From positions 2,346 to 66,345 of the forward strand of contig JAUWGP010000013.1 in the NCBI GenBank assembly GCA_030606335.1: 64,000 nt of DNA, read 5' to 3'. A model generated the notes under the pieces. The model was not told the origin of the DNA and did no database searches. It saw nothing but the letters and a program-made list of their open reading frames with translations. Below are positions 10,032 to 52,798 of this stretch, piece after piece (the stretch's first letter is position 1; the number at the start of each line of letters is the position of its first letter). This DNA comes from a candidate division WOR-3 bacterium. Lineage in GTDB: Bacteria; Hydrothermota; UBA3073. A program made the translations under genes and the position numbers.

Positions 10032-10958
10032 ATGCTTCAAAGATTTAAACAAAACCCCATACTTGAACCAATAGAATCTCACCCCTGGGAATCTAAGATG
10101 GTCTTTAATACCGCTGCTATATATCTTGATAAAAAGGTTCATTTGTTGTACCGAGCCCGTGATGCTAACAACATTTCCACAATTGGCTATGCATCTTCTA
10201 AAGATGGGTTTCATATTGACGAAAGATTCGAAACTCCCGTACTCTCACCCCAGAGTGAAGAGGATTGTTATGGTTGTGAAGACCCACGAATAACGAAAAT
10301 AGAGGAACAGCTTCACATTACATATACAGCCTATGGTCGTATTCCCGGGATGGGTGAAAGTAAACCGCGTATTTCAATGAGACTACCACAAATTGGGCTT
10401 ACATCAATATCCATAGGGGATTTTTTGAATCACACATGGAATTTCAGCAAGAGGATATATCCACTACAGGGGGTTGAAAATAAGGATTGCGTGATATTTC
10501 CTGAGAAATTCGGGGGGAAATATGTAATCTATCACCGTGTCAGTCCATATATTTGGATATGCTACTCAGACGACCTTGTTCACTGGTACGATCATAACAT
10601 ACTAATGGGTCCACAACAAAGATGGGAGCTTTTTAAAATTGGAGCAGGTGCACCTCCTCTTAAAACAGAAAAGGGATGGCTTTTTATTTTTCACGGGGTT
10701 TCGAGTTCACTCGTATATTGCCCCAGCTTTGCTTTTATAGATTTGGAGGATCCAAGTAAGATTATATATAGACATCCCAAACCAATACTTGAGCCAGTAA
10801 TGAAATATGAAAAAGAGGGTATTGTTCCCAATGTTGTTTTTGTGGAGGGTGTTGTTATTAAAGACGAGACCGTTTTTGTCTACTATGGGGGAGCTGACAC
10901 TGTTATAGGTGTTGCAACTGCTCCACTATCTCTGTTCTTTGAGCTTGCAGGATTATAG
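10032..10958 (+). CDS. GH130-family glycoside phosphorylase/hydrolase (beta-mannoside phosphorylase-like)
   Basis: N-terminal NPIL...W motif, GCEDPRITKI, five-bladed-propeller-like repeat pattern; AGGAGG RBS. Confidence 0.8.
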   Translation: MLQRFKQNPILEPIESHPWESKMVFNTAAIYLDKKVHLLYRARDANNISTIGYASSKDGFHIDERFETPVLSPQSEEDCYGCEDPRITKIEEQLHITYTAYGRIPGMGESKPRISMRLPQIGLTSISIGDFLNHTWNFSKRIYPLQGVENKDCVIFPEKFGGKYVIYHRVSPYIWICYSDDLVHWYDHNILMGPQQRWELFKIGAGAPPLKTEKGWLFIFHGVSSSLVYCPSFAFIDLEDPSKIIYRHPKPILEPVMKYEKEGIVPNVVFVEGVVIKDETVFVYYGGADTVIGVATAPLSLFFELAGL

Positions 10959-10999
10959 AAAGTCCGCCAAAGGATCAACAAATAAAAGGAGAAGCGATT

Positions 11000-12961
11000 A
11001 TGAAACAGACGAGAGAAACCTGCTTCAAGAAGAACGGTAAACCCATCTATTTGATAGGAGCCAACTACTGGCCAAGGCAAACAGGACCTCTTATGTGGCG
11101 TAAGTGGGAGCCAAAAACCGTGAGAGAAGAGCTGAAGCAGATGAAGAGCCTTGGAATGAATGTGTGCCGTTCCTTCCTTTATTTTCCCGACTTTATGCCT
11201 ACACCAAACAGAGTAGATGAAAATATGCTTAATAGACTTGTTGAATTCGTAAATCTGTGTGAAGAAGTAGACCTCTGTACAATACCCACTCTTTTTGTTG
11301 GACATATGTCTGGAGAGGACTGGGATGTCAACTGGAGAGGAAATAGAGACTTTTATAAAGACCCTTGGATGGTAGAGAAGGAGTCTTTATATGTTCGCAA
11401 CGTTGTAGATAGTGTCAAAACGAACAAGGTAATTGTTGGGTGGGTGCTGACAAATGAAATTACAAATTACACAGGTGAAACCGATTCAGAAACCATGCTT
11501 GGTTGGGTAAAAACTATATGTAACACAATCCGTGAGAGAGATCCCTTGTGTCCAATCAGTATAGGTGATGGAGTCTGGGGGAGAGAAATCTATGGTAGAG
11601 ATAACGGGTTAAGGTTGAATGAACTAAAAGATGTGATTGACTTCTTGGGACCTCATTTTTATCCTGAAGAAGACGACACTCTCCGCCATTCATATACTCC
11701 CTCGTTTATTTTAAAGATGTGTAATTATGGGAAACCAGTAATTATAGAGGAATTCGGTTGTTCTAATAGCTTTGCATCTGAAGAGCACCAGGCAGATTAT
11801 TACCGAACAACTCTTAATAGCGCTTTCCTTGCAGGTGCAGTTGGAACGCTTTGCTGGTGTTATTCAGACTTTGATCTTCCATATCAAAGACCTTACTCAC
11901 ACCATCCATTCGAGCTGCTATTTGGAGTCATCAGGAAAGATAGTTCAGTAAAACCAGCTGGATATGAAATAGAGCGATTCAGCAAGATAATTAAAGCGAT
12001 TGACCCATTTGAAATTAATATCGAGGAAAGTAATGCTTTTATCATTGTTCCCTCCCACTATGTCCTGGATTATCCATACTCATTTGAAGATAAGGATATG
12101 ATTAAAAAGGTTTTACTACAGTCTTATACATTGACTAAACAGGCGCATATAAACGGTGGTTTTCTTCCAGAACCCCAACTTACAGAAGACATTGAATCAA
12201 AAAAGATACCGAGTATCCCAAAAGAGATAAGATTATTACTCGCACCAAATGTACAGAAACTCACTGCTCCTTTCTGGGAGGCTATCTATCGGTATGTGGA
12301 GGAAGGAGGAGTATTTTACTGCTCTTATCACTACGATATGTGGATACACATATTTGAGAGGCTATTCGGTGCAAAACACAATCTGAGGAGTGGTCTTCCA
12401 GATATACCTGAGAAAGAGTTTATTGAGATAAAGTTTGTCGAAGACTTCTACGAAATAGCCAAGAATGAACGTCTTACTTACTATGTTAGGGGAAATATTA
12501 AGGACAGGGCATTTTGCCCTATCACACCTAACAAGGCAAAGGTTATCGCTGTGGATAGTGATGGTCGACCAGCTATACTACTAAATTCAGTAGGTAAAGG
12601 TGCAGTTATTTTTTCGACTTATCCACTTGAATACTATCTTGTGAATACCAACGACGTCTATAAAAAAGATACGACATATAAATTGTATCGAAGTCTAAGC
12701 AGACTCGCGGGCATTGTGCCTGAATTTCAAACCTCAAATCCACTTGTAGAGCTGGGATATATAAGGTTTAAGGATGAATCAAGGTTTCTCTTATGGATTA
12801 TAAATCATGATTGGGAAAAGACAGAGGGTATTATTGAAACAAGCTTGAATATAAAGAGAGTTTCAAACCTTGAAAGTATGCAATCAATTAACTTCAAGGA
12901 GAGGATACCATTCGAGTTGCCAGCAAAAGAGGTGAGTGTTTATGACATCTACATTAGTTAA
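11000..12961 (+). CDS. Clan GH-A (GH5-like) glycoside hydrolase with C-terminal accessory domain; probable beta-mannanase/mannosidase-type
   Basis: Catalytic-acid-like NE (VLTNEITNY) and nucleophile-like IIEEFG motifs at TIM-barrel spacing; 653 aa. Confidence 0.5.
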   Translation: MKQTRETCFKKNGKPIYLIGANYWPRQTGPLMWRKWEPKTVREELKQMKSLGMNVCRSFLYFPDFMPTPNRVDENMLNRLVEFVNLCEEVDLCTIPTLFVGHMSGEDWDVNWRGNRDFYKDPWMVEKESLYVRNVVDSVKTNKVIVGWVLTNEITNYTGETDSETMLGWVKTICNTIRERDPLCPISIGDGVWGREIYGRDNGLRLNELKDVIDFLGPHFYPEEDDTLRHSYTPSFILKMCNYGKPVIIEEFGCSNSFASEEHQADYYRTTLNSAFLAGAVGTLCWCYSDFDLPYQRPYSHHPFELLFGVIRKDSSVKPAGYEIERFSKIIKAIDPFEINIEESNAFIIVPSHYVLDYPYSFEDKDMIKKVLLQSYTLTKQAHINGGFLPEPQLTEDIESKKIPSIPKEIRLLLAPNVQKLTAPFWEAIYRYVEEGGVFYCSYHYDMWIHIFERLFGAKHNLRSGLPDIPEKEFIEIKFVEDFYEIAKNERLTYYVRGNIKDRAFCPITPNKAKVIAVDSDGRPAILLNSVGKGAVIFSTYPLEYYLVNTNDVYKKDTTYKLYRSLSRLAGIVPEFQTSNPLVELGYIRFKDESRFLLWIINHDWEKTEGIIETSLNIKRVSNLESMQSINFKERIPFELPAKEVSVYDIYIS

Positions 12962-13261: not shown

Positions 13262-14278
13262 ATTAAAGCTGCTGTATTTTATAAACCTAACGATATAAGG
13301 ATCGAAGAAAGAGAGATTCGAGATATAAAGGATAACGAGGTGTTAGTAAGAGTCAAGGCATGTGGCGTATGCGGAACAGATATACATATCTATGAAGGAA
13401 CGGCAGATTCAAGACCACCTGTAATACTTGGTCATGAATACGCTGGTTTAGTTGAGGCTGTAGGTAATAACGTAGCCAATTTTAAATCCGGAGATAGGGT
13501 AGTAATCGACCCAAATATCATCTGTAGTCATTGCCATTACTGTCAACTTGGTCTACCCCATTTCTGTGAAAACTTAGCTGCCCTTGGTGTCCATACTGAT
13601 GGAGGCTTCGCAGGTTACTCAATTGTTCCAGAATCCCAGCTGTATAATCTCCCTTCTAACATTCCCTTTGATTGGGGATGTTTCATTGAGCCAATATCCT
13701 GCGCCATCCATGGTATCGATCTTGCTGGTATAAAGGCGGGTGATAATGTTGTAATAATCGGTACTGGTGCTATTGGTCTAATAATGATACAGCTTGTCAG
13801 ACTTCATGGTGCTGATAAGCTCATTATAGCAGAACCAACAAAAGATAGAAGAGACATTGCCTGCAGGTTAAATCCAGATATAGTAGTAGATCCCATTAAA
13901 GAAAATCTAAAGGATGTTGTGTACAGTAACACCTATGATGGAGCAGATGTAGTAATTGAGTGTGCGGGAACTCCGAAGACTACAAGAGCTACTTTTGATT
14001 TAGTCAAAAGAGGTGGTACAATAATATTCTTTGGTGTCTGTGATAGAGATTCAACTATTACTATAAGACCCCAGGAAATATATTTAAAAGAATTGACTAT
14101 AATTGGCAGTTATATCAATCCCAATACATTCAGTCGTGCCATTGATTTACTTTCTCTAAATAAAATAGATCTAACTCATTTCAGTATAAAAAAGCACTCG
14201 CTCGATGAACTGTTCAAAGCTTTCAAATACCACAAAGAGCGAAGATATCTTAAAAACGTAATTGTTCCAAATACTTAG
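13262..14278 (+). CDS. Zn-dependent MDR alcohol/polyol dehydrogenase (sorbitol/threonine-DH-like); apparent ATT start
   Basis: VRVKACGVCGTDIHIYEG, GHEYAGLVEAVG and a GxGxxG Rossmann fold; frame is open from 13244 with no ATG/GTG/TTG before conserved (M)KAAVFYKP; GAGGAGG RBS 5 nt before ATT 13262. Confidence 0.7.
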   Translation: MKAAVFYKPNDIRIEEREIRDIKDNEVLVRVKACGVCGTDIHIYEGTADSRPPVILGHEYAGLVEAVGNNVANFKSGDRVVIDPNIICSHCHYCQLGLPHFCENLAALGVHTDGGFAGYSIVPESQLYNLPSNIPFDWGCFIEPISCAIHGIDLAGIKAGDNVVIIGTGAIGLIMIQLVRLHGADKLIIAEPTKDRRDIACRLNPDIVVDPIKENLKDVVYSNTYDGADVVIECAGTPKTTRATFDLVKRGGTIIFFGVCDRDSTITIRPQEIYLKELTIIGSYINPNTFSRAIDLLSLNKIDLTHFSIKKHSLDELFKAFKYHKERRYLKNVIVPNT

Positions 14279-14293: not shown

Positions 14294-15271
14294 ATGGAAA
14301 AGGGCATTTTGGATGTCATATGTATCGGTGAGGCTTTAATAGATTTCATTTCTACCAAAAAAGGAGTAACATTAGAATCAACTCCCGGCTTCTTGAAAGC
14401 TGCAGGTGGAGCTCCAGCTAATGTCTCTGTGGGATTAGCAAGACTGGGCAAAAGAGTCGCATTTATTGGTAAGGTAGGAGAGGATTCTTTCGGTAAATAT
14501 CTGTGGAAGACTTTAAAAGAAAACAATGTTGATGTATCAAAACTCCTTTTTGATAAAAAACATAAAACCAGACTGGCGTTTGTATCACTAACTGACAAGG
14601 GTGAGAGAGATTTTGAATTCTATGGGCATGAGAGTGCGGATACCAAAATAACTAAAGATGAAATAAACAAAATCTACTTTGACGATGCAAGGGTATTACA
14701 TTTTGGTTCTGTATCTCTTATATCAAATCCGAGTAGAGAAGCTATCTTGACCGCAGTAAAGATTGCTAAGAATAATAAAATTCTTGTTTCTTTTGACCCA
14801 AATTTTCGACCCTCTCTCTGGGAAAGCCATGATGTAGCCAGAAATCAGATAAAGGTAGCACTGAACTTAGCAGATATAGTTAAAATGGATAGGGCTGAAA
14901 TGGAATTCATTACCAGTACCACAGACCTAAAGAAGGGAAGTAAATCTATTTTAGAATATGGTGTCCGATTGTCTGTGATTACACTTGGTAAGTATGGTTG
15001 TTATTTTCTCAACGATAACATAGATGGTTATGAAGCCGGTATTAATGTAGAGGTAAAGGATACTACCGGTGCTGGTGACGGATTCGTAGCAGGAATGCTT
15101 GGTAAAATCTCAGAAGTAACATTGAAAGACCTTACAGAGAAAGAACTCCATAAGATATTCAGATTCGCCAATACAGTAGGTGCATTGACAGTCACAAAAT
15201 ACGGTGGAATACCTGGCTTACCTTACAGAGAAGAAGTCGAGTCATTTTATCACCTAAACTTTGGAGATTAA
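14294..15271 (+). CDS. PfkB-family carbohydrate kinase (fructokinase/mannokinase-like)
   Basis: DVICIGEALIDF, GGAPANVSVGLARLG and DTTGAGDGFVAGML motifs. Confidence 0.75.
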   Translation: MEKGILDVICIGEALIDFISTKKGVTLESTPGFLKAAGGAPANVSVGLARLGKRVAFIGKVGEDSFGKYLWKTLKENNVDVSKLLFDKKHKTRLAFVSLTDKGERDFEFYGHESADTKITKDEINKIYFDDARVLHFGSVSLISNPSREAILTAVKIAKNNKILVSFDPNFRPSLWESHDVARNQIKVALNLADIVKMDRAEMEFITSTTDLKKGSKSILEYGVRLSVITLGKYGCYFLNDNIDGYEAGINVEVKDTTGAGDGFVAGMLGKISEVTLKDLTEKELHKIFRFANTVGALTVTKYGGIPGLPYREEVESFYHLNFGD

Positions 15272-15272
15272 A

Positions 15273-16697
15273 ATGAAATTATTAACAATATTCTTACTTG
15301 TATTTCTCTCAGTAGTCCTATGTGAATGTAATGGATATGAGCAAGATAAAAGCCTTGATTATGAGAATTATTCTATAGATTCAATAAATAGACTAATTAA
15401 CCTCAAACATCTGGACTATCTAAACGAAGAAATACTTATAGATGGAATTCCCATGATAATCACCCATATCTACTCCGAATATCCTGATTACGACTGGGTT
15501 GATGCATCAGAAGAGGGAATAGCATGTGTTGACGATGTAAGTCGAGCAGCTGTACTCTATCTCAGACATTACGAGATGTATGGGGACAGTGTATTGTTAG
15601 AAAAGGCAAGAAGAGGGCTTAACTTTGTGATGTATATGGAGCAAGATGACGGCGAGTTCTACAACTTTATTAGAAGCGACCACTCGATAAACAAAGAGGG
15701 GAGGACTAGTAAAAAATCCTTCAATTATTGGGCTGTAAGGGGACTACGAACGTTATGCTATGGTTACAAGGTCTTCAGTAAAATTGATACTTCCTATGCA
15801 AAGAAACTGAAGGAACATATTGAACCCACATTTGAACGAATAGAAGAATTTTTAGAGTATTATGGTAAATACGAATTTGTTGAGGGGGTGAAGGTTCCAA
15901 AATGGCTTATTCGTGGTGGTGATGCAACATCTGAAGTTGTTTTAGCCCTGCTGGATTACTATAGTATGAATCCTGATGATGAAGTAAAAGAAATAATCGA
16001 AAAACTCGTTGATGGCTTGATTGATCTCCAGATACACGACCCAAATAGCCCATTTTATGGCATGCACCTATCCTGGAGAAACCACTGGCATGCATGGGGA
16101 AACACCCAGACAGAGGCACTTGCCAAAGCTGGTAGAATTTGTAATAATAAATCCTGTGTTGAATCTGCAAAATTAGAGGCAGATAATTTTTATCTGTTCC
16201 TGATATCAAGAAATTTTCTTCAAGGTATTGAAATCTTCTCAACAGAGGAGCCAAGGATAAAGGATTTCCCTCAAATTTCGTATGGAATTCGTCCCATGGT
16301 CTCAGGACTCATCCAACTTTATATTACAACAAAGGAGGAGAAATATGCGAAGTTGGCAGGACTTGTTGCATCCTGGCTCAGAGGAAATAATCCTGCTCGT
16401 TATGCTATGTATGATTCGAAAACTGGTAGAGGATACGATGGTATCGATAACAAAGACAAAGTAAATAAAAACTCAGGAGCAGAATCGACTATAGAGGCAT
16501 TGATGACTTTAATGGACATTTCAGAGAATCCCATATCTTTGAAGTACTTTTATTACGATCTCGAGTCCATAGATGAAATAAAAAAGTATGCTTTTTATAG
16601 AGATTGCAGTGACAAAGAAATTAATGTGGTCTATGATGAAAAGATGGGAAGATGGAGGATAGAAGAGTCAGAAGAGAACGAAAAAAATATCAGGTGA
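15273..16697 (+). CDS. Secreted hypothetical protein, possibly an (alpha/alpha)-barrel glycoside-hydrolase-like enzyme
   Basis: Signal peptide MKLLTIFLLVFLSVVLC; W/Y/G-rich; start set at ATG 15273 after GGAG; no family recognised. Confidence 0.4.
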   Translation: MKLLTIFLLVFLSVVLCECNGYEQDKSLDYENYSIDSINRLINLKHLDYLNEEILIDGIPMIITHIYSEYPDYDWVDASEEGIACVDDVSRAAVLYLRHYEMYGDSVLLEKARRGLNFVMYMEQDDGEFYNFIRSDHSINKEGRTSKKSFNYWAVRGLRTLCYGYKVFSKIDTSYAKKLKEHIEPTFERIEEFLEYYGKYEFVEGVKVPKWLIRGGDATSEVVLALLDYYSMNPDDEVKEIIEKLVDGLIDLQIHDPNSPFYGMHLSWRNHWHAWGNTQTEALAKAGRICNNKSCVESAKLEADNFYLFLISRNFLQGIEIFSTEEPRIKDFPQISYGIRPMVSGLIQLYITTKEEKYAKLAGLVASWLRGNNPARYAMYDSKTGRGYDGIDNKDKVNKNSGAESTIEALMTLMDISENPISLKYFYYDLESIDEIKKYAFYRDCSDKEINVVYDEKMGRWRIEESEENEKNIR

Positions 16698-16763: not shown

Positions 16764-16792
16764 TTGACAAGCATGCGAAAGTGTGCTATAAT
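16764..16792 (+). promoter_or_regulatory. Sigma70-type promoter (TTGACA-17-TATAAT) followed by ~200-nt leader
   Basis: Exact hexamers, 17-nt spacer. Confidence 0.5.
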
Positions 16793-18053: not shown

Positions 18054-19076
18054 ATGCCCAAAACATCTTCAATAGATAAAAGATTGTGGGAAAAGGCTGG
18101 TAAGGCAATTGGAACACTCAGTGGACGCAGAGAAAATAAAGTCAAAGATATTTTCACAAGAAGGTATCTTATAAGTCCAGAAGACTTATTTGTGGAAGAC
18201 TACTTAAGATCGAAGCCAGTTGCTGCATTTAATCCGGGAGCTCTTGAGAGAGATGGAGAGCTTCTCATCTTTCCCCGGCTCGTCTTTGATTACCGTCAAT
18301 ATTCTTCAAGTGTGGGCGTAATTTCAATGAATATCAAGAAGGTGATTGAGGGCGAGGTAGAGAAACCATTGAAAACGAGGATTATTCTTTGGCCCAAGGA
18401 GCCCTGGGAATTCAGTCGTGGCTGTGAGGATCCGCGTGTCTGTCTTTTTAATAATAGCATTTATATGCTTTATACAGCTGCTGGGAAAATAGGCAGACAG
18501 GCATTTGCTGAATTGAATTCATCTTTTGAAGTCAAAAGAAGGGGTTATTTTTGCATTGGGAAGGAAAAGTTCGCTCCTTCCTGTAAGGATAGCGCATTCG
18601 TCAAGTTCTCTAACGGGAAGGCTGTTATGTTAACCAGGCCAGATTTTCGTAGCATAGCAATATGTTGGAGTGCGAAGGCTGACCTAAAGGATCTAACAAT
18701 AGATGAACAGACCTTGAAACCAGTGATATCCCATGAGAAATGGGAATATAAGGTGGGCTGGTCCACGAATGTCGTTAATCTGTCCGAAAATAAGTACTTG
18801 GTGGGTTGGCATGCGGTGCTAAAGGAGGACGACTCCTACAGGAACGGGTTAGCAGTTGTGGATGATAATGCGGAGCTACTCGGTATAAGTAACTATCTTC
18901 TATCCCCTCAAGGATTAAACGAGAGCTATGGGGATAGAACCTTGGTTATTTTCGGTGACGGGCTGGTAAAATATGGGAAATACTTGATCTGGATTGGCGG
19001 GGTGAGCGATTATGCTATCGGGATATTCATCACTGAGATAGATGAAGCATTAGAAAACATTAGATGGATAAAATAA
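18054..19076 (+). CDS. Divergent GH130-family protein
   Basis: GCEDPRVCLFNNSIYMLYTA motif and propeller-like repeat pattern. Confidence 0.5.
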   Translation: MPKTSSIDKRLWEKAGKAIGTLSGRRENKVKDIFTRRYLISPEDLFVEDYLRSKPVAAFNPGALERDGELLIFPRLVFDYRQYSSSVGVISMNIKKVIEGEVEKPLKTRIILWPKEPWEFSRGCEDPRVCLFNNSIYMLYTAAGKIGRQAFAELNSSFEVKRRGYFCIGKEKFAPSCKDSAFVKFSNGKAVMLTRPDFRSIAICWSAKADLKDLTIDEQTLKPVISHEKWEYKVGWSTNVVNLSENKYLVGWHAVLKEDDSYRNGLAVVDDNAELLGISNYLLSPQGLNESYGDRTLVIFGDGLVKYGKYLIWIGGVSDYAIGIFITEIDEALENIRWIK

Positions 19077-19081
19077 TCACT

Positions 19082-23222: not shown

Positions 23223-23230
23223 AAAGGGTG

Positions 23231-42920: not shown

Positions 42921-43325
42921 TGTTTTACGAGGCAATGAAGAGGCGGGAATTAATCAGTTTATTGATAATACTATTTTGTATAGGGACCCCATCCCTCCAC
43001 GCACAAGCCACTTTCTCCTGGGTAGACCCGGAGGATTCTGTTCTTATAGTGACCATCCGTCAGATGGACAGGGTTATCCACTCTCCTATCGGATCAAGGC
43101 AACCGTTGTTGGCAGTGGCCATACATATACTGCCAATATGACACAGGATAACATGAGTGGCTTAAGGCAGGAATATGTCGATATGCGGTCTGACCCTAAA
43201 TCACTTAATCCGCGACTTAAAAAGTTAATATTAGTGTTCCTGATGAGCTGTTTATAATAGAATTCCCCTCAGGCGTTCCTGTTTATGACTTTCGAATTGA
43301 CAAGTCATTCATAGTTAAATGATAC
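42920..43325 (+). pseudogene. Degraded remnant of a paralog of the downstream gene (C-terminal ~110 codons, multiple frameshifts)
   Basis: 43236-43322 translates to VPDELFIIEFPSGVPVYDFRIDKSFIVK* versus the downstream gene's C-terminus VPDSLFMVKFPSGIPVYDSRTGRSFIAD*; further upstream GYPLSYRIKAT ~ GELCYRIRTA in another frame. Confidence 0.45.
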
Positions 43326-43451
43326 TTGTTCAAACTGCCTTGACGTTATTATGACATATACTTTCGATGAGTATGCAACCGCAGGCGATATGTGTGGTGG
43401 TGGGAAGCAATAAGTTTAGTGACTCATAACTACAAAATTAGGAGCAATATT

Positions 43452-44267: not shown

Positions 44268-44521
44268 TAATAGTAAAAATATTTTTGAAATAACCGCTAT
44301 CATTCGAGTGAGATGATACGAGAATCAGAAAGAAAGTTGATCAATCGTATTAATAATGAGGGTTTCCTTTGCTTTGCTGCTATCTTTGGAATTACTTCGG
44401 GCAAAACTATTATCGAAAGAAGAGGCTTTCAAAAAGCTGTTCGACAAATAAGTGCTATATTATTATAGGGAACATGTAGTCCGACATGTCAGAGTTTTAG
44501 TTAAACCAGAAAGGGATACAT

Positions 44522-45196
44522 ATGAATGGCGAAAAACCCATTAAGAAAAGTTTGGAGGATAGTGTAAAGCAGCTTTACTCAGAGGATCTTAAAAGCACAA
44601 AGGTAACAGGTATTTCTTACAAAAGTAGGCATACAGACTTTTTAAAAAGTCTTTTGATATCTCTTGGCTTGGTGGGCGGCCTTTTGGCTTTGTCCTCATA
44701 TATTTATGTGTTTAAACCAGAAATAAAAGAAAAAACATACAATACTACTGTCTATAAAGAACCCCCACCAGCTGAAAAAGTTGTAATCCGACGATATGAG
44801 CTATTACCTGGGAATAAAACTGGCACAGCAAAGGAGAAATACTTAGAAGGAATAGAGCTAATAGCAGTACGAAAAGGAATTACTTCGGAATTCGCTGTAA
44901 AGCAGCCTGAAGGCTCCGGGAATGGTTTATATGATGGATTCACCTATAGCCCACAAATACCTCCCTCCTATATTCCCGAGCCTACTAATATAGCTTTACC
45001 CAAATCTACAGTTAATGAAGTGTTGCCTTTTATGGAGAGAGAAAGGGAAATGAAAATCGGAGAATATTTGGGAGAACTTGTACTTATATGGACAATTCCC
45101 CAAGTAGGTGAAGGCTGGTCGAGGGTAGGGTACATTCCTCCCCCTGAATCTTCGGGGATTTATCACCCCCCACCATATATACCCCTGCCCCCCTGA
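44522..45196 (+). CDS. N-terminally membrane-anchored proline-rich protein; paralog of 63183-63995
   Basis: Shared blocks IELIAVRKGITSEFAVKQPEGSG / IELIAVKRAITSAFTVKLPEVSG and YSPQI...PEPT. Confidence 0.5.
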   Translation: MNGEKPIKKSLEDSVKQLYSEDLKSTKVTGISYKSRHTDFLKSLLISLGLVGGLLALSSYIYVFKPEIKEKTYNTTVYKEPPPAEKVVIRRYELLPGNKTGTAKEKYLEGIELIAVRKGITSEFAVKQPEGSGNGLYDGFTYSPQIPPSYIPEPTNIALPKSTVNEVLPFMEREREMKIGEYLGELVLIWTIPQVGEGWSRVGYIPPPESSGIYHPPPYIPLPP

Positions 45197-45507: not shown

Positions 45508-45779
45508 GATACTCCCGACAATCACAATAATAAAGAAATCATGGCTAATCTGTCCCGCTTTCTTCGGGATCCCGCCAAAGGCGGGACGTCCAATTTTTCT
45601 CTTGACTTTTTCTATTTTATGTGATACAATTTTTATCATTCTTAATCTTCTTTACAGCACTCAGGCAAAAATTCAAGAAATATCTTAAGTATAAGTGATT
45701 TTTGTTGGTTCCAAAGAACAAACTTAACGCATAATTGGGATAATGAAAAAAAGAGTTAATACTTCTTCTGGGAGGAATT

Positions 45780-48482
45780 ATGGCGAGTTTATCAGTCCCT
45801 GCCCTTGCATCTGCTAAAGAGCCCGTTGATTATGTAGACCCATTTATCGGAACTGCAGCAAACCTGGGAAACACTTTTCCGGGTCCGTGCATCCCCTTCG
45901 GGATGATACAGTTAAGCCCCGATGTAACCATTCACAATTGCTCTGGATACGATTATGCCAGACGCACCATCAGAGGGTTTAGTTGTACTCATTTGAGCGG
46001 AACGGGTTGCAGTGATTATGGCAATATCCTTTTTATGCCAATGGTTGGAGAAATTAAAATTCTGCCCGGCTCGAGGGATAAACCTGATGAAGGTTATCGA
46101 TCGAGATTTGACAAAAAAGATGAAAAAGCATTTCCCGGATATTATTCTGTTACGCTTAAAGATTATAATGTAAAGACTGAATTGACTGCTACCAAACGTG
46201 CTGGATTTTTCAAGTTTACCTTCCAGGAGAGTAAAGATGCACACATCTTAGTAGATCTCTTCCATAGAATAGGCGGAGAGGCTATTAATGGATATGTAAA
46301 AATTGTAGATAGTCACACCATTGAAGGTTATAGTTATTGCAATTCGACTGGTAGAGGGTGGTGCGGAGGTTCTGACTATACTGTCTACTTCGTCGCCAAA
46401 TTTAACAAACCATTTAATGGGTATGGAACCGGGAAGGTCTGTGAACCAGTAGACATTCCGGAGAGTGCCTTGATTCCAGCTGGTGCCAAAGAAGGAAAGC
46501 ATGGTCTCAAGGGTGAGTATTTTAATAACCGAAATCTTCAGGGTAAGCCGACATTGATCCGAGTTGACAAGCAGATTAATTTTCAATGGGGAGGTTCACC
46601 GGATAATAGTATAAATTCAGATGATTTCTCTGTTCGCTGGACCGGCTGGTTGGTCCCTCCTTTTTCTGGCACCTATCAGTTAGCTGTTACCAGCGATGAC
46701 GGAGTCCGCCTTTTCATTGATGGGAAACTCATCATCGACAAATGGGTAGACAGACCAATCACGACAGATATAGCACCCGTGACACTGAAGGCGGGACATC
46801 GATATGATATTCGGATAGAGTACTATAAACATGGGGGAAAAGCTGTCGCCCATTTGAAATGGGTTTTTCCTGATACTTATAAGACAATTCGGAAAGGTTC
46901 GCAGGAAGAATCCGGGAAGCATATTGTTGCCTTTGTTGACTATACTACTGCAAAAAACGAAACTATCTTAATGAAGGTAGGGATTTCATTCGTTAGTATA
47001 GAGGGAGCAATAAAAAACCTTGAATCCGAAATCCCGAACTGGGACTTTGATAAGGTAATAAACGAGGCAAAAAAATCCTGGAACAAGAGGTTAAACAAGA
47101 TCAAGGTTGAAGGGGGTACGGATAAGCAAAAAGTGATTTTTTACACTGCCCTTTATCATACATTGATACATCCCAACATTTTTATTGATGTAGATGGAAG
47201 ATATTATGGGATGGACCATAAAATTCATTCTACAGCGGATACTCATTATGCCATCTTTTCTGGATGGGATATATTCCGAGCAGAAATGCCTTTGTTAACA
47301 TTGATAGAGCCAGTGGTGGATAATGAGATAATCCGATCCTTGATAGCCAAGTATAAACAGGGTGGCTGGCTGCCGATATGGGAGTTTGCAAATAGTTATT
47401 CCAACTGCATGATTGGTGACCCGGCTGTTCCTGTAATTGTTGATGCCTATATGAAGGGTCTCAGAGACTTTGATGTTGAGGAGACCTATAAAGCGATGAG
47501 GAAGAGTGCTATGGAATTGCCTCAACCAAGCCATTTATTCAAGGGTCGGCGCGGTTTGGAGGAGTACAAGAAATTTGGCTATATTCCTGCTGACACACCC
47601 GAGATTGATGCAACTGTTTCCGTAACTTTAGAGTATGCCTATCCCGATTGCTGCCTGGCTCAGATGGCGAGAGACTTGGGCAAGGAAGAAGATTACGAGT
47701 TATTTATAAAAAGGGCAGGTAATTACGCAAATGTTTTTGACCATTCAGCGGGATTCATGCGACCGAGGAATAAGGATGGGTCATGGGTAACGCCGTTTAA
47801 CCCCATTGTTTGGGAACACGGCTTTTGCGAAAGCAATTCATGGCAACAGACCTGGTTTGTGCTACATGATGTACAAGGGCTGCTCGACCTTATGGGAAGA
47901 GAATATTTCATTGAAAAGCTGGATACCTTATTCAAGGAAGGTCTCTCCGATAATTTAGGAGGTAGGTATGGAGAGAATCTATATTATTATCATGGAAATG
48001 AGCCTGACCAACATGTTGCTTATTTTTATAATTATGCCGGGGTACCATGGAAAACCCAAAAATGGGTTAGGGAGATAATAGAAAGAGCATATAAATTGGG
48101 TCCCGATGGAATATGTGGGAATGATGATTGTGGCCAAACATCAGCGTGGTACATATTCAGTGCAATGGGTTTTTATCCAGTCTGCCCTGGACAGAATATA
48201 TATGTAATAGGGAGTCCAATATTTGATAAAGTTACGATCGAATTAAACACGCCATACAAAAAAGGCACATTTGTAATAGATGCAATTAATGTATCAAGAG
48301 AGAATAAATATATTCAGTCTGTAACTTTAAATAACAAGGTATTGGACAAATCCTGGATCACGCATTCTGACATAGTCAGTGGAGGGGTTTTGACCTTTGT
48401 AATGGGACCAGAGCCAAACAAGGAATGGGGGAGCTCGCCTGAAGAAGTTCCACCTTCTATGTCCAAAACGGGAGAAAAATGA
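45780..48482 (+). CDS. GH92 alpha-1,2-mannosidase-family enzyme with inserted PA14 domain; 5' end probably frameshifted (signal peptide in frame 0 upstream of annotated ATG)
   Basis: DYVDPFIGTAANLGNTFPGPCIPFGMIQLSPD N-terminal GH92 signature; PA14-like block FSGTYQLAVTSDDGVRLFIDG...GHRYDIRIEYY; KKELILLLGGIMASLSVPALASA readable upstream in frame. Confidence 0.8.
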   Translation: MASLSVPALASAKEPVDYVDPFIGTAANLGNTFPGPCIPFGMIQLSPDVTIHNCSGYDYARRTIRGFSCTHLSGTGCSDYGNILFMPMVGEIKILPGSRDKPDEGYRSRFDKKDEKAFPGYYSVTLKDYNVKTELTATKRAGFFKFTFQESKDAHILVDLFHRIGGEAINGYVKIVDSHTIEGYSYCNSTGRGWCGGSDYTVYFVAKFNKPFNGYGTGKVCEPVDIPESALIPAGAKEGKHGLKGEYFNNRNLQGKPTLIRVDKQINFQWGGSPDNSINSDDFSVRWTGWLVPPFSGTYQLAVTSDDGVRLFIDGKLIIDKWVDRPITTDIAPVTLKAGHRYDIRIEYYKHGGKAVAHLKWVFPDTYKTIRKGSQEESGKHIVAFVDYTTAKNETILMKVGISFVSIEGAIKNLESEIPNWDFDKVINEAKKSWNKRLNKIKVEGGTDKQKVIFYTALYHTLIHPNIFIDVDGRYYGMDHKIHSTADTHYAIFSGWDIFRAEMPLLTLIEPVVDNEIIRSLIAKYKQGGWLPIWEFANSYSNCMIGDPAVPVIVDAYMKGLRDFDVEETYKAMRKSAMELPQPSHLFKGRRGLEEYKKFGYIPADTPEIDATVSVTLEYAYPDCCLAQMARDLGKEEDYELFIKRAGNYANVFDHSAGFMRPRNKDGSWVTPFNPIVWEHGFCESNSWQQTWFVLHDVQGLLDLMGREYFIEKLDTLFKEGLSDNLGGRYGENLYYYHGNEPDQHVAYFYNYAGVPWKTQKWVREIIERAYKLGPDGICGNDDCGQTSAWYIFSAMGFYPVCPGQNIYVIGSPIFDKVTIELNTPYKKGTFVIDAINVSRENKYIQSVTLNNKVLDKSWITHSDIVSGGVLTFVMGPEPNKEWGSSPEEVPPSMSKTGEK

Positions 48483-48765: not shown

Positions 48766-49992
48766 ATGAAGGCAAAAAATTTGTTCTGGGTTCTGCTTAC
48801 TGGCATATGTCTGTTGATATTGACGACAGCTATAGCGGCGACTCCTCAGAAAACAGGCAAGTGGACTGAAAATTTAGAAGAACTCGCTTTTGTCCGAAAG
48901 ACACAACGTCTTCAAGAGAGAATGGAAGAGGTTAAAGAGAAAGCTGTAAAAGTAAAAGCGTCTGAAAGACTTATTCAGGTGATAGAAGAAGCAGAAAGTG
49001 AACTGGGCAATATGGTCACACAACCCATTTATAAAAGGCAAAAACCTCCTGAATTTGAAGGAATATTAAGGGAAGTGACTTCAACAATTAAGAGAGAAAA
49101 GCTCCCAGGTGAGACTGTTCAGGAGCTGATCAATACAGTTTTAAATTTGGAATTATTTGCTATTCTCAAGTTTGCAAAAGGGAATTTTATTTTAAGGTCT
49201 TTCGTTCTATACGATGAAGAACTCATCAAGGATGCAAAAAGCCAGATTAGGTTGGAATTACCACCAGGGTGGATGGCGAAGCTTGATTCCGAAGAGGATG
49301 AATTTAAAGAATTCCTTATAAACCCTCCTCCATTATGTGCCTTTGGTAATTATGTAGTAGAAGTAAAGGCAACAATATACTGGTCCTGGGGAGAAACAGA
49401 GATTTCTCGGAATTTTCAGTGGCAAAATGCTTCTCTGATTGATTTAAAATTGATAGGTGTTTTTGATAATATCGAAAATAGGGGAATGGATATCGTCTAT
49501 GCACTGGAAAAGGATATTTTAAGAGGGATCGATTTTTCTGATGTTTACAAGGATAAGGAAGGTGTTACTGTAGGTTGGCACGATGTAGAAAAGGAGAGTA
49601 TATTCAGCAGAGGAGGAGCTCATTTTGTGGATCTCAAGAAGGAATTTGAATCTCTTAATTTCCCAACAGAGAATACTATTTCTTATGCCTGCACTTATGT
49701 TCACTCGGATGAGACAATGGATGTGCGGTTTGATTTGGGCAGTGATGACGGCTGTGTGTTCTGGCTTAATGGTCAGGAAATCCACCGCCATTGTGAGCCC
49801 AGAGGATTAAGGATAGGAGAAGATATAATTTTTGCCCAGCTCAAGGAGGGTTGGAATCAAGTTTTGCTTAAAATTGGTCAGGTAGGTGGTGGGTGGGAAT
49901 TCTGTCTCCAAATATTCAGTCTTGAAGGTAAACCCATTGAAGAACTTCGTTGTTCAACCGAGAAAATACTATTTCCTCCAACGGATGAATAA
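48766..49992 (+). CDS. Secreted protein with C-terminal PA14-like beta-sandwich domain
   Basis: Signal peptide; MDVRFDLGSDDGCVFWLNGQEI...WNQVLLKIGQVGGGWEF resembles the PA14 SDDG / L.G core. Confidence 0.45.
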   Translation: MKAKNLFWVLLTGICLLILTTAIAATPQKTGKWTENLEELAFVRKTQRLQERMEEVKEKAVKVKASERLIQVIEEAESELGNMVTQPIYKRQKPPEFEGILREVTSTIKREKLPGETVQELINTVLNLELFAILKFAKGNFILRSFVLYDEELIKDAKSQIRLELPPGWMAKLDSEEDEFKEFLINPPPLCAFGNYVVEVKATIYWSWGETEISRNFQWQNASLIDLKLIGVFDNIENRGMDIVYALEKDILRGIDFSDVYKDKEGVTVGWHDVEKESIFSRGGAHFVDLKKEFESLNFPTENTISYACTYVHSDETMDVRFDLGSDDGCVFWLNGQEIHRHCEPRGLRIGEDIIFAQLKEGWNQVLLKIGQVGGGWEFCLQIFSLEGKPIEELRCSTEKILFPPTDE

Positions 49993-49998: not shown

Positions 49999-50901
49999 AT
50001 GCAATATAAATATCAAGTTATGAAGATAATATTTATAATTGCCTTTCTTTTTATTATCTTATCTGGAGCATTTTTTAATTCTCTTGCACAACCATTATTT
50101 AAACCGGTTGCTCCACTCACAGAGACTCCCACTGAAGAGTTTGTGTTTGCAGTCTTTGGAGATAATCGACCAGAGCATAAGGCAATTGAACAACCTCAAG
50201 TATACAAACATATTATTCGGGAAATAAATAAATCTTCGGCTACTCTGGCGATTAACACAGGCGATCTGGTGGATGGAGTTGTGGATCTTGAGACACAAAG
50301 ACTACAGTTTGCAGAGTTCATTAAGGTCTCCCGCAGACTAAGTATCCCTTTATACACCGTAATTGGCAACCATGATGTTGCTGGTCGACAAGAAATCCAG
50401 GACCTTTATTTAAAATTAATCTGTCCGAAACTTTACTATTCTTTTGACTTAAACCACTGCCATTTTATCTTCTTAGATTCTGAGACTATTGGGGAAGAGG
50501 GCTCAATTCCGTGGGAACAGTTAAAATGGTTAGCAAAGGACCTTGAAAATGTTATAGTTACTACGAATCACATTTTCATTTTTCTCCATCGACCATTGTT
50601 TTCGGCAGGTCCTCATAAAGGGGGATGCCTGGATAGATATCCAGAAGAGCGGGATGAATTGTTAAAATTGTTCGTCAGATTTAATGTTGATGCAATTTTT
50701 TGTGGACATGAGCACATCTACCATAAATCCGTGCATAATGGAGTGACCCAGTATATTACGGGTGGAGCAGGTGCTCCTTTACATAAGAATTTTGACGAGA
50801 TAAAAGATTATCCAGGGGCATTTCACCATTATCTGTTTGTAAAGGTTTCCCCTAAAAGATATGAAGTTGAGGTAAAAATCCCCAAAGGTTATGGGAATTA
50901 A
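49999..50901 (+). CDS. Calcineurin-like metallophosphoesterase
   Basis: GDNRP, GDLVDG, GNHD and GHEH metal-ligand motifs in canonical order; N-terminal TM/signal. Confidence 0.75.
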   Translation: MQYKYQVMKIIFIIAFLFIILSGAFFNSLAQPLFKPVAPLTETPTEEFVFAVFGDNRPEHKAIEQPQVYKHIIREINKSSATLAINTGDLVDGVVDLETQRLQFAEFIKVSRRLSIPLYTVIGNHDVAGRQEIQDLYLKLICPKLYYSFDLNHCHFIFLDSETIGEEGSIPWEQLKWLAKDLENVIVTTNHIFIFLHRPLFSAGPHKGGCLDRYPEERDELLKLFVRFNVDAIFCGHEHIYHKSVHNGVTQYITGGAGAPLHKNFDEIKDYPGAFHHYLFVKVSPKRYEVEVKIPKGYGN

Positions 50902-50917
50902 GGAAGAAGGTGAAACT

Positions 50918-52798
50918 ATGCATAGAAAAATACGATTAAGAGTAATAGGCTTATTTTTGTTACAGATAGTCTTTGGCAGTGCAGTATTTTCGCAGCAGAT
51001 TGGCCCCTTCGTTAAATACGAAAATAATCCAATCCTGATACCTCAGGGTACAGGTTTTGAGTCAAAAGCTGTGTTCAATCCCGGGGTTATTCTGGATGAT
51101 GATACCTTTTATATGTTTTATAGAGCTCAAAATGAGAGTGGACAGTCCACCATTGGTTTAGCTGTGAGTGAGGATGGGATAAATTTTACCAGATATCCTG
51201 AACCGGTAATATCGCCTGAATATGATTATGAACTTCCCGGAGGTTGTGAAGATCCGAGAATCGTAAAGATAGGAAATACTTATTATATCACTTATACTGG
51301 TTATAGTCATAAAGGTACACCTTCCTGCTTGGCAATGTCAAAAGACCTGATGCATTGGAAAAAGCTCGGGCCTATTACACCAAATAAATCAGCTGCGATA
51401 TTAAAGAGAAAGATTGATGGAAAATACTGGCTATATTATGGTGATACAAATATCTGGATTGCCCATTCTATAGATTTAATTCACTGGAATGTCATCAATG
51501 AGCCTGTTTTAAAACCGAGAAAGGGTTATTTCGATGAGGGGTTGGTCGAGCCGGGACCTCCGCTAATTATTACTGAAGAAGGGATATTACTTATCTATAA
51601 TGGTAATATACCCAAAGAAAAAGCGATGGAATTAGGCAAAAAAGAAGGACAGGAAAAGGTCAGAGAATATGCCACTGGTTGGGCGCTCTTTTCTATAGAA
51701 GATCCTACCAGACTAATTGCAAGATGTGAATCTCCATTTTTGACAGTAACCGAAGATTTTGAAAAGAATGGGCAGGTAAGCGATGTGGTGTTTTCAGAAG
51801 GATTGGTGCAAAAAGATGGTAGATCTTATCTTTATTATGGTTGCGCAGATACTTACATCGGGGTAGCAGTAAGTCAGCAAACATGGCGAGAACCAATATT
51901 CCTGTCCCACTCCTCGTTTATCTTGGGAATTAGTTTTCCTATATTAATACCTCAAGGAAATGGTTTTGAAGGTAATCGGGTATATAACCCTACAGTCATT
52001 GTATCAGAAGGGACTCTCTATATGGTTTACCGGACAGAGGGAAAGGAAACTGGTACAGGAGCGTTTGGTATGGCTAAGAGTACAGATGGGATAAATTTCA
52101 TCCGATATAAAAACAACCCCATCATGAGGGCAGAGCATGAGTTTGAACAAGGAGGTTGTGAAGACCCCAGAATTGTAAAATTCGGAGACACATACTATTT
52201 ATTTTACCACGGGAATGAGAATAAAACACCAGGTAATATATGTCTGGCGACTTCCAAAGATCTTCTTACTTGGGAAAAATATGGCGAGGTTTTGCAACCC
52301 AAAAACCGTTGGGAAATGGGTCAAATAAAAGCTCCTGCACCTGTTCCTCAAAAGATAAAAGACAAATATTGGATGTACTATCAGGGGGAAATAAATCCAT
52401 GGGATACAAAGGTGGGGATAGCCTGCTCAGAAGATTTAATCCATTGGACTCATGTATTAGAAGAACCTGTAATGACACCCAGAGAAGGCTACTTTGACAG
52501 TTGGGGGACAGAGCCTGGAGTAGCTGTGGTAATAGACGAATGGATATTTTTAATCTATAACGGATGGGGGGGAGATGGGACGAATATCAACAAAATCGGC
52601 TGGGCGTTATTCAGCAAGGAGAATCCTTCAAAGTTAGTCGCTCGATGCGATTCTCCTATAATATCTCTACCACATGACCATGTATTTTGTGAGGGATTAG
52701 TAGAATTCAAAGATAAGTGGTATTTATACTGGGGAACCGCGGATCAATGGATAGAAGGTGCGATTGTGGATTTAAACAAGATAATAAGTAAATTATAG
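50918..52798 (+). CDS. Secreted tandem-GH130 fusion protein (two complete GH130-like modules)
   Basis: Two copies of the NPIL...GCEDPRIVK...YYGCAD / YWGTAD pattern; start set at ATG 50918 (MHRKIRLRVIGLFLL signal). Confidence 0.75.
   Translation: MHRKIRLRVIGLFLLQIVFGSAVFSQQIGPFVKYENNPILIPQGTGFESKAVFNPGVILDDDTFYMFYRAQNESGQSTIGLAVSEDGINFTRYPEPVISPEYDYELPGGCEDPRIVKIGNTYYITYTGYSHKGTPSCLAMSKDLMHWKKLGPITPNKSAAILKRKIDGKYWLYYGDTNIWIAHSIDLIHWNVINEPVLKPRKGYFDEGLVEPGPPLIITEEGILLIYNGNIPKEKAMELGKKEGQEKVREYATGWALFSIEDPTRLIARCESPFLTVTEDFEKNGQVSDVVFSEGLVQKDGRSYLYYGCADTYIGVAVSQQTWREPIFLSHSSFILGISFPILIPQGNGFEGNRVYNPTVIVSEGTLYMVYRTEGKETGTGAFGMAKSTDGINFIRYKNNPIMRAEHEFEQGGCEDPRIVKFGDTYYLFYHGNENKTPGNICLATSKDLLTWEKYGEVLQPKNRWEMGQIKAPAPVPQKIKDKYWMYYQGEINPWDTKVGIACSEDLIHWTHVLEEPVMTPREGYFDSWGTEPGVAVVIDEWIFLIYNGWGGDGTNINKIGWALFSKENPSKLVARCDSPIISLPHDHVFCEGLVEFKDKWYLYWGTADQWIEGAIVDLNKIISKL

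Follow-up and report, generated by a model that had tools for sequence, protein, structure and literature searches.

Co-oriented operons in a candidate division WOR-3 bacterium form a mosaic with a probable mannoside-scavenging system rich in GH130 enzymes

Introduction

The 64,000-nucleotide stretch of DNA analyzed here (the window) comes from a candidate division WOR-3 bacterium (GTDB lineage Bacteria; Hydrothermota; UBA3073) and spans positions 2,346 to 66,345 of contig JAUWGP010000013.1 in assembly GCA_030606335.1. An earlier note on this DNA had described positions 10032-52798 as a single island for mannoside or N-glycan catabolism, built around GH130 phosphorylases and an Opp-family ATP-binding cassette (ABC) importer. 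About five transcription units, all in one orientation, make up the flagged 43 kb as a mosaic; three of them, at 10032-16697, 16999-35747 and 45780-52798, together form a probable mannoside-scavenging system. It is very likely that the region functions in the uptake and catabolism of mannosides, and reasonably probable that this system is directed at beta-1,2 and beta-1,3 linkages, with its hydrolases secreted and its phosphorylases in the cytoplasm.

Pfam and NCBIfam scans covered all plus-strand open reading frames (ORFs) of at least 100 amino acids between 10032 and 63995, and that strand carries all substantial ORFs beyond 10032, up to the window's end. PF04041 (GH130; cut-off 26 bits) matches five genes with six domains at 32.6-333 bits. 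The family assignments made earlier for these genes and for the GH38, GH92 and GH5-like enzymes are reproduced by hidden Markov model searches, and Pfam or NCBIfam also matches the proposed Opp importer, PfkB kinase, MDR dehydrogenase, TIM barrel, nucleoside hydrolase and radical SAM protein. The combination of GH38, GH92, several GH130 enzymes and a GH5 beta-mannosidase-like enzyme agrees with the idea that the gene set is directed at mannosides. Loci elsewhere that carry homologues of the window genes are denoted below by the letter L and a number.

GH130 enzymes and their linkage signatures

Phosphorylases of family GH130 carry the phosphate ligands R168 and H231 and have neither a signal peptide nor a carboxylate base (Li et al., PMC7660257). 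Hydrolase-type members are marked by a signal peptide, by the loss of the basic phosphate ligands with carboxylates present at E227 and E268, and by Lys199 as the determinant of beta-1,2 specificity (Cuskin et al., 2015, PMC4599007). The linkage is read from a pair of residues, one preceding the catalytic Asp and the other at the R150/K199 position, where E/K indicates beta-1,2, E/R beta-1,3 and Y/R beta-1,4 (PMC7660257). For the window, the motifs were read from two independent alignments, with BT3780 numbering mapped onto them, and the catalytic-Asp ED motif is found in all six domains in both.

The Arg/His phosphate ligands are retained in only three domains out of six. The term phosphorylase, which the earlier note had applied to the GH130 genes, thus suits GH130a, GH130b and GH130c (HR/TR, HG/HA and K-I/V-G), and does not suit GH130d or either domain of the tandem protein. 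GH130a has the pair E/K and no signal peptide, its best matches in the PDB are 9fj8 (E 3e-72) and 7fip (E 9e-71), and it scores 293 bits against NF052550 (beta-1,2-mannobiose phosphorylase), under the cut-off of 450; it is a putative enzyme of the beta-1,2-mannoside phosphorylase type. GH130b, also E/K and without a signal peptide, has its ligands in the motifs TR / HA / YKVG and a single PDB match (E 3e-7), and it too is classed from these signatures as a beta-1,2 phosphorylase type. GH130c, again lacking a signal peptide, is putatively of the phosphorylase type and carries E/R, for which the published pair rule predicts beta-1,3 linkages; its best PDB matches are 9fj8 and 7fip (E about 1e-54). 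TM1225 (1vkd) is among the structure matches of GH130a and GH130c, to which UhgbMP-type structures are only distant matches.

The remaining domains appear to be of other types. GH130d has the pair E/R, the catalytic motif YEDVQ and no signal peptide, is distant from all solved structures (7fip, E 7e-15) and, as judged from its lost ligands, would be a non-phosphorolytic, cytoplasmic enzyme. The tandem protein has one signal peptide common to both domains, each of which shows E/K and has D/E plus E in place of the Arg/His ligands (motifs YYGD / VEPGPP / NKSAAIL in the N-terminal domain and YYQGE / TEPG / IKAPAPV in the C-terminal domain), with Lys at the K199 position and carboxylates at the E227/E268 positions. 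Its best PDB matches are the BT3780-type beta-1,2-mannosidases 3taw, 3r67, 5a7v and 3qc2, and its score of 376 bits against NF058598 (beta-1,2-mannosidase) falls under the cut-off of 550, so it is not an equivalog. Both domains are accordingly described here as putative hydrolases of the BT3780-type beta-1,2-mannosidase type. In L022, which is 89% identical, about 895 nt of the tandem gene are missing (51736-52630 of the window; L022 4798-5816), leaving a single, possibly broken GH130 domain, and the tandem duplication varies between close strains.

None of the six domains has the beta-1,4 pair Y/R, and Glu, never Tyr, precedes the catalytic Asp. As far as the pair rule predicts, these signatures make both the N-glycan core and plant beta-1,4-mannan less likely as targets.

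The Opp-type importer

The transporter genes have the features of a sugar-binding family-5 importer, with an SBP_bac_5 solute-binding protein (SBP), two permeases, two oligo_HPY ATPases, nearest SBPs of carbohydrate type and linkage to glycosidase genes. In Thermotoga, Opp-family SBPs are known to serve for sugars, and the PDB entries bear names to that effect. The best PDB matches of the window SBP are the Thermotoga mannoside-binding proteins 4pfu, 4pft and 1vr5 at E about 1e-24, a distant similarity from which ligand specificity is not transferable. Chitin-oligosaccharide, laminarin/cellobiose-type and agrocinopine binders come next, and true peptide binders are much weaker matches. On this basis the SBP is predicted to bind mannosides.

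Synteny agrees with the Opp-type uptake put forward earlier. In L002/L003, whose SBP homologue is 69% identical, the same five transporter genes accompany five GH130 genes (one of them tandem) and a gene for a glycosyltransferase (GT)-GH130 fusion; L002 also has a 69% orthologue of the window tandem GH130 and, as in the window, a GrpB gene after OppF. In L004/L005 (SBP 53%), a ROK regulator gene, the transporter and a hydrolase-type GH130 gene occur together, with an orthologue of GH130b (46%) encoded after the Opp genes. In L007 (SBP 41%), labeled as a Thermoprotei archaeon, a GH130 gene stands on each side of the transporter. SBP homologues thus lie beside GH130 genes in three independent lineages, and the association of this SBP clade with GH130 is conserved across phyla, although not universal. 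A genome scan with the SBP found one close relative only, and the SBP is 97% identical to that of a metagenome-assembled genome labeled as a candidate division WOR-3 bacterium.

Three tandem 49-nt repeats (GTCATTGCGAGCGACTGAAAGGAGCGTGGCAATCTCA...) lie at 3146-3341, and inverted copies of them, at 26957-27386, occupy the 488 nt that separate the permease genes from the ATPase genes.

Transcription units and mosaic structure

A regular-expression scan of the intergenic gaps found perfect TTGACA-17-TATAAT promoters at 9844, 16764 and 52950 and near-perfect ones at 35807, 40682 and 45602. Because predicted promoters stand at the module borders and the modules are separate in relatives, the region is not the single island that had been described. 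Module A, consisting of GH130a, GH5, MDR dehydrogenase, in some cases PfkB, and unk478, recurs in L023 and L024. In these loci a family-1 SBP and two permeases of the CUT1 type are encoded between GH130a and GH5 (L023 183-3228; L024 3816-6911), with a MalK-type ATPase also present in L024; in the window the two genes join cleanly, with 41 nt between them (10959-10999), which suggests that module A has lost a dedicated importer. The contrast drawn earlier between an Opp-type and a family-1 SBP system therefore needs to be qualified, since module A carries the latter in these relatives. The operon for GH92, unk408, metallophosphoesterase and GH130 is syntenic in L022, together with the T9SS-type cluster that follows it and with the single-domain form of the GH130 gene.

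Other genes within the 43 kb are neighbors and not parts of the pathway: the radical SAM-HEAT pair, the nucleoside hydrolase gene, the GT4 pseudogene, the RAYT gene and the REP elements. The radical SAM-HEAT pair occurs in 10 metagenome loci (L009-L018) at 61-81% identity without GH130d, any other GH130 gene or the nucleoside hydrolase, and its neighbors there are unrelated (SNF2, integrase, a nitrogenase-like gene and acyl-CoA dehydrogenase). In the window the pair is split by the nucleoside hydrolase gene, which has its own promoter at 35807. The radical SAM protein was considered as a partner of GH130d, as the two genes overlap by 4 nt, and was rejected because in the 10 loci it is paired with HEAT and never with GH130. 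One of these loci adjoins a nitrogenase-like Oxidored_nitro gene and a second radical SAM gene.

The RAYT gene scores 87.3 bits against NF047646 (cut-off 80) and is bracketed by a 27-nt inverted repeat (19077-19103 / 20081-20107, 96% complementary) whose 3' arm lies inside the end of the ORF, so that the features of a RAYT, including flanking inverted repeats, are present. In L001 (1-6886), a relative at 97% identity, an extra 6.6 kb of DNA, unrelated in sequence, separates the RAYT 3' end from GH38; the site lies at a synteny breakpoint and looks like a recombination hot spot. The earlier note had found no dedicated regulator and had pointed instead to Q-element boxes upstream of many genes. 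The Pfam scans, which took in the first 10 kb of the window as well, gave no match to a LacI, ROK, GntR or AraC regulator, and the Rfam and tRNA scans were empty, so riboswitch regulation is not supported. The DnaA-like helix-turn-helix (HTH) domain of the RAYT protein was considered as the missing regulator and rejected, since the protein passes the RAYT equivalog model, inverted repeats flank its gene and the site is a synteny breakpoint. The repeats themselves are real, with eight copies of AACCACAGAGGACACGGAG within three mismatches against zero expected, spread over several intergenic gaps. They form inverted pairs (AACCACAGAGGACACGGAG / CTCTGTGCCCTCTGTGGTT) with 60-180 nt of A/T-rich DNA between them, in gaps downstream of genes; these pairs are probably the boxes in question and look like REP/MITE elements linked to the RAYT gene, not operator sites. 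REP/MITE-like pairs occur at 32403-32541, 33677-33735, 38961-39090, 39279-39390, 48488-48742, 61909-62129 and 5105-5381. A small hairpin repeat family, AAAGCAAAAATGTAGGGGTTCGATTTATCGAACCC, is present at 12999-13075 (after GH5) and at 31416-31450 (after GrpB).

The same mosaic could be taken to mean that there is no functional island at all, and that independently acquired operons for carbohydrate-active enzymes (CAZymes) with unrelated substrates have accumulated in a recombination-prone, REP/RAYT-rich region. The separate promoters, the modules lying apart in relatives, the indels at the RAYT gene, within the tandem GH130 gene and at the CUT1 position, and the GC step at 10000 speak for such a history. 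This explanation is nonetheless unlikely, given that all of the CAZymes are mannoside-acting with complementary predicted locations (secreted hydrolases, importer and cytoplasmic phosphorylases) and that L002 likewise has this importer alongside cytoplasmic GH130s and a secreted tandem GH130.

Other enzymes and the choice of substrate

The GH5 protein has no signal peptide and is a putative cytoplasmic, exo-beta-mannosidase-like enzyme. Its best PDB match is 7bob (Op5Man5, which is an exo-beta-1,4-mannosidase; E 2e-35), followed by GH5_18 Man-beta-1,4-GlcNAc mannosidases at E 4e-11 or weaker. Op5Man5, the closest solved relative, has the same two-domain architecture of GH5 plus a GH42-type trimerization domain (PMC8233224); identity is low, however, and the window gene differs in sitting among beta-1,2-type GH130 genes. 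The nearest NCBIfam models of the MDR dehydrogenase are of the Tdh, IolM and YdjJ types, all under cut-off, and its gene adjoins the GH5 gene in L023 and L024 too. The PfkB protein scores 256 bits against NF006957 (fructokinase; cut-off 450), and its gene is kept in L023. The GH38 protein scores 569 bits against the MngB model (cut-off 1138); its best PDB matches are 3lvt, 5kbp and 2wyh, and it is similar to cytoplasmic GH38 enzymes of enterococci and streptococci. An inositol or compatible-solute substrate, such as mannosyl-di-inositol-phosphate or mannosylglycerate, was considered and set aside as speculation, since the IolM-, IolC-, IolO- and MngB-like scores are far under the equivalog cut-offs.

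N-terminal signal-like segments are found only on the SBP, unk478, unk408, the metallophosphoesterase, the tandem GH130 and T9SS655 (the T9SS-tailed 655-aa protein), and, in frame upstream of the ORF, on GH92. For the last of these, the upstream in-frame codons encode a textbook signal peptide (KKELILLLGGIMASLSVPALASA), the ATG of which (45745) is displaced from that frame by a single base, in a run of seven A residues (A7; region 45745-45782). The frame break is probably a homopolymer error, the alternative being a real frameshift or slippage site, and for this reason GH92 is most likely exported. An exact-sequence look-up with the GH92 protein gave no match, likely because the deposited gene call starts elsewhere owing to the A7 frameshift. 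Of the two PA14-domain proteins described previously, the GH92 insert is confirmed by Pfam; for the second, unk408, the signs are all weak, namely a GSDDGCVFWLNG motif (DDG...WLNG), marginal hhalign similarity to the PA14 domain inserted in GH92 and weak fold matches of a model with a pLDDT of 57. Just five homologues of unk408 were found; both its gene and that of the metallophosphoesterase are among those syntenic in L022.

The exported unk478 has no Pfam or NCBIfam match and more than 1800 homologues, some with weak GH9 matches. Its AlphaFold2 model (pLDDT 92) has as best Foldseek match, and sole close structural relative, 7tem, the uncharacterized Yersinia exported protein YPO2471 (38% identity; target-normalized TM 0.92), with much more distant fold matches to AGE epimerases, GH9, GH76 and GH127 at rmsd >5. 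From the modeled fold it is a candidate glycanase of module A.

These enzymes could instead serve catabolism of high-mannose N-glycans, in which GH92 and GH38 would take the alpha-mannoses and a GH130 enzyme or GH5 would cleave the core Man-beta-1,4-GlcNAc after import. The presence of GH92, the enterococcal and streptococcal relatives of GH38 and the GH5_18 matches of the GH5 protein are in keeping with this use, which had been proposed in the earlier note together with beta-mannan. It is improbable, however, as no GH130 domain has the pair Y/R, UhgbMP-type structures are distant, and Pfam detected no GH18, GH85, GH20, sialidase, fucosidase, NagA, NagB or NagK in the scanned ORFs. Because the Pfam and NCBIfam scans found no GH18, GH85, GH20 or GlcNAc catabolic genes, the region does not qualify as an N-glycan utilization locus.

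Use of plant or algal beta-1,4-mannan or manno-oligosaccharides, as in the Thermotoga TM1223-1226 region, would account for the best PDB matches of the SBP and for GH5 having an exo-beta-1,4-mannosidase as its best match (PMC8233224). Against it stand the lack of a recognizable endo-mannanase (GH26, GH113, GH134 or secreted GH5), of a cytoplasmic cellobiose/mannobiose 2-epimerase (the AGE-like fold matches of unk478 are weak and the protein is exported), of an alpha-galactosidase or acetyl esterase and of any Y/R GH130; it would also leave two alpha-mannosidases without a role, and we consider it quite improbable. Mannoglycans capped with beta-1,2 or beta-1,3 mannose fit better than either substrate class because all six GH130 domains are E/K or E/R, none is Y/R, and GH18, GH85 and GH20 were not detected.

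A GT4-like family linked to GH130

The 347-aa GT-B/GT4-like protein encoded next to GH130b is 36% identical to the N-terminal half of the 704-aa GT-GH130 fusion in L002. Its family has 207 representatives among 1.84 billion proteins. Three much longer matches were scanned (726, 757 and 2382 aa), and all three contain GH130 domains, so that GH130 fusions of the family number at least four proteins elsewhere, with differing domain orders. One bold proposal is that the GT4-like protein partners a GH130 phosphorylase in a nucleotide-independent mannosyl relay or a mannogen-like beta-mannan cycle and that, separately, unk478-type proteins found a new GH family; it is hardly probable. If true, the relay would run from a beta-mannoside through alpha-mannose-1-phosphate to a new mannoside.

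In a broader version, the system would be partly anabolic or cycling, with the GT4-like protein and GH130b, possibly together with GH130 phosphorylases acting in reverse, building and mobilizing an intracellular or envelope beta-mannoside; it would then resemble Leishmania mannogen or the GDP-mannose salvage proposed for Thermoanaerobacter. Beta-1,2 and beta-1,3 GH130 enzymes can be dual transferases/phosphorylases (PMC12814180), which counts for this version, as do the position of the GT-like gene beside GH130b, its fusion to GH130 in L002 and in three further proteins, and the GT4 gene of the Thermoanaerobacter cluster. It is very improbable all the same, since the importer, secreted hydrolases and alpha-mannosidases indicate uptake and breakdown, no guanylyltransferase is present in the window, and a GT activity of the 347-aa protein is suggested by very weak Pfam matches only.

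Features of the window

The coordinates of the features are collected in Table 1. Upstream of them, the first 10 kb carry housekeeping genes with no relation to the system; they encode Rnf subunits, a deaminase, UbiA, SpoIID and an ECF sigma factor. The GC fraction steps from 0.33-0.345 (1-10000) to 0.36-0.43 (10001-64000) where the plus-strand array begins, and the sign of the GC skew flips.

Table 1. Positions of genes, promoters and repeats in the window
Feature	Position	Strand	Evidence or remark
Promoter, module A	9844..9872	+	Perfect sigma-70-type TTGACA-17-TATAAT; regex scan of intergenic gaps; repeat family D8
GH130a	10032..10958	+	PF04041 195 bits; cytoplasmic, no signal peptide
GH5 with GH42-type trimerization domain	11000..12961	+	PF00150 'Cellulase' 47 bits; PF08532 (GH42M) weak
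Zn-dependent MDR polyol/sugar dehydrogenase	13340..14278	+	ADH_N and ADH_zinc_N
PfkB sugar kinase, fructokinase-like or IolC-like	14294..15271	+	PF00294 224 bits
unk478, exported/anchored (alpha/alpha)6-barrel, YPO2471-like	15261..16697	+	Predicted structure; N-terminal hydrophobic helix
Promoter, module A/B boundary	16764..16792	+	Perfect TTGACA-17-TATAAT
GT-B/GT4-like protein, 347 aa	16999..18042	+	Weak Glyco_trans_1_2 match only
GH130b, divergent, cytoplasmic	18054..19076	+	PF04041 192 bits
RAYT gene with DnaA_C-like HTH	19077..20114	+	NF047646; Y1_Tnp and Bac_DnaA_C
GH38 alpha-mannosidase, cytoplasmic	20127..23222	+	Four GH38 Pfam domains
Family-5 (Opp-type) solute-binding lipoprotein	23228..25054	+	SBP_bac_5 PF00496 134 bits
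Two permeases, OppB-like and OppC-like	25051..26942	+	BPD_transp_1 in both; OppC_N in one
REP-like repeat block between permease and ATPase genes	26957..27386	.	Inverted matches to 3146-3341
Two ABC ATPases, OppD-like and OppF-like	27431..29406	+	ABC_tran and oligo_HPY
412-aa membrane protein, GrpB, AP_endonuc_2 TIM barrel (sugar isomerase/epimerase-like; 31511-32380)	29612..32380	+	
GH130c, cytoplasmic	32550..33551	+	PF04041 185 bits
GH130d, divergent, cytoplasmic	33736..34719	+	PF04041 weak, 32.6 bits
Radical SAM (34716-35747), nucleoside hydrolase IU_nuc_hydro (35864-36775), HEAT-repeat protein (36898-37638)	34716..37638	+	
409-aa protein, frameshifted GT4 gene, T9SS-tailed 655-aa protein (T9SS655), two further proteins	37728..45196	+	
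Promoter, extracytoplasmic operon	45602..45630	+	Near-consensus TTGACT-17-TACAAT; repeat family D8
GH92 with PA14 insert	45745..48482 (ORF 45780-48482)	+	N-terminal and catalytic GH92 domains and PA14; PF07971 640, PF17678 271, PF07691 115 bits
unk408, secreted, lineage-specific, possible PA14-like C-terminal domain	48766..49992	+	5 homologues
Secreted calcineurin-like metallophosphoesterase	49999..50901	+	PF00149 54 bits; N-terminal hydrophobic segment
Secreted tandem GH130, two BT3780-type domains (putative)	50891..52798	+	PF04041 333 bits, two stretches

Membership of the genes at 37728-45196 in the mannoside system is not demonstrable. Pfam and NCBIfam give no family match for unk409, unk412, unk291 or unk224, and T9SS655 has, besides its sorting tail, no Pfam, NCBIfam or PDB sequence match. 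The GT4 gene at 39426-40633 is split into ORFs of 101 aa (39426-39731) and 301 aa (39728-40633) in different frames with a 4-nt overlap, and is a frameshift, either a pseudogene or a sequencing error.

Downstream of the flagged region lie genes for LVIVD, FlgD_ig, T9SS-tail and PorV-like proteins, a set that fits a diderm of the FCB group; homologues of several window genes are labeled WOR-3 or KSB1. The cluster (53476-63995) comprises LVIVD-repeat, FlgD_ig/T9SS-tail, CarboxypepD_reg and PorV-like proteins behind the perfect promoter at 52950. Two of the LVIVD proteins share a C-terminal 286-nt repeat (55574-55859 / 57104-57389, 78%). L002 encodes a 1026-aa protein with an LVIVD segment fused between two GH130 domains, a fusion that hints that LVIVD surface proteins may work with GH130 enzymes.

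Comparison with known systems

The closest published system is the Thermoanaerobacter sp. X-514 cluster Teth514_1785-1796 (Chiku et al., 2014, PMC4264767), which is unidirectional and encodes an SBP, two permeases, two ATPases, a GH5 beta-glycosidase, a GT4 and two cytoplasmic beta-1,2 GH130 phosphorylases. Its ABC importer, GH5, GT4-type and phosphorylase-type GH130 components have counterparts in the window, and GH130a and GH130c find their best solved relatives in its GH130 phosphorylases (7fip, 9fj8). The window differs in adding GH38, GH92-PA14, the secreted tandem GH130, the metallophosphoesterase and the MDR/PfkB pair, in its host, a diderm candidate-phylum bacterium, and in the spread of its genes over several operons. 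GDP-mannose salvage as in the Teth514 cluster is not indicated, as the window has no mannose-1-phosphate guanylyltransferase; GrpB is its sole nucleotidyltransferase-fold protein.

With Thermotoga maritima TM1223/TM1226 the window shares a family-5 SBP for manno-oligosaccharides that is linked to a GH130 gene, in Thermotoga presumably TM1225, which we take to adjoin the TM1223 and TM1226 genes. In Bacteroides thetaiotaomicron, the yeast-mannan polysaccharide utilization loci (PULs; PMC4599007) likewise pair GH92 enzymes with secreted GH130 enzymes that have carboxylate bases and the Lys determinant and lack phosphate ligands. The window, unlike these PULs, has no SusC/SusD, GH76, GH99 or GH125 and relies on ABC import; its GH130 hydrolase is a tandem two-domain protein and is accompanied by cytoplasmic phosphorylases. 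The Bacteroides PULs also include a phosphatase. No ORF of at least 100 aa has a Pfam match to TonB_dep_Rec, Plug or SusD, so the SusC/SusD pair by which a Bacteroidota-type PUL is recognized is not present.

Discussion

The predicted pathway has four steps. Families and signal peptides suggest that exported GH92-PA14 would trim mannose-rich glycans to oligosaccharides, together with the tandem GH130, the metallophosphoesterase, the possibly PA14-like unk408 and probably unk478. Likely substrates would be beta-1,2- or beta-1,3-linked mannose on alpha-mannan or phosphomannan, from fungal-type walls or other microbial mannoglycans. Homology and conserved synteny suggest that the family-5 SBP then hands oligomannosides to the Opp-type ABC importer. 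In the cytoplasm, as predicted from the signatures of GH130a, GH130b and GH130c, these enzymes would phosphorolyze beta-mannosides to alpha-mannose-1-phosphate with no use of ATP, and GH38, the GH5/GH42-like exo-beta-mannosidase and GH130d would hydrolyze the remaining linkages. Finally, from their conserved linkage, we infer that the MDR dehydrogenase and PfkB may channel an unphosphorylated sugar or polyol into glycolysis.

Several points weigh against this picture. The pair in GH130c is E/R, beta-1,3 by the rule, although the protein has its closest relatives among beta-1,2 enzymes. The +1 Lys of GH130b is alignment-dependent, with two candidate columns that both hold Lys, and the linkage calls as a whole are predictions from two-residue rules that are, by their authors' account, not fully validated. 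The nearest relatives of the GH5 enzyme act on beta-1,4 linkages, so that beta-1,4 substrates are conceivable, and the Thermotoga SBPs, too, presumably bind beta-1,4-manno-oligosaccharides. Three SBP homologues of 39-40% identity, from one sample, are orphans without GH130 neighbors. Within the window, no endo-acting enzyme was identified, and phosphomannomutase, mannose-6-phosphate isomerase and mannose-1-phosphate guanylyltransferase are absent.

A literature search on 'WOR-3' plus 'GH130' returned no papers. The general scheme of the system has precedents in Thermoanaerobacter, Thermotoga and Bacteroides, and current understanding is unchanged by it. What the window offers is a testable picture of an uncultivated WOR-3 bacterium that would feed on mannose-rich microbial glycans through periplasmic trimming, Opp-type import and ATP-saving phosphorolysis. 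For the GH130 family, the tandem hydrolase-type protein, GH130b with almost no solved relatives, and the putatively cytoplasmic and non-phosphorolytic GH130d are candidates for the discovery of specificities. The region also brings to light two uncharacterized families whose genes are strongly linked to GH130 genes, one being that of the GT4-like fusion partner and the other that of the YPO2471-like (alpha/alpha)6 protein.

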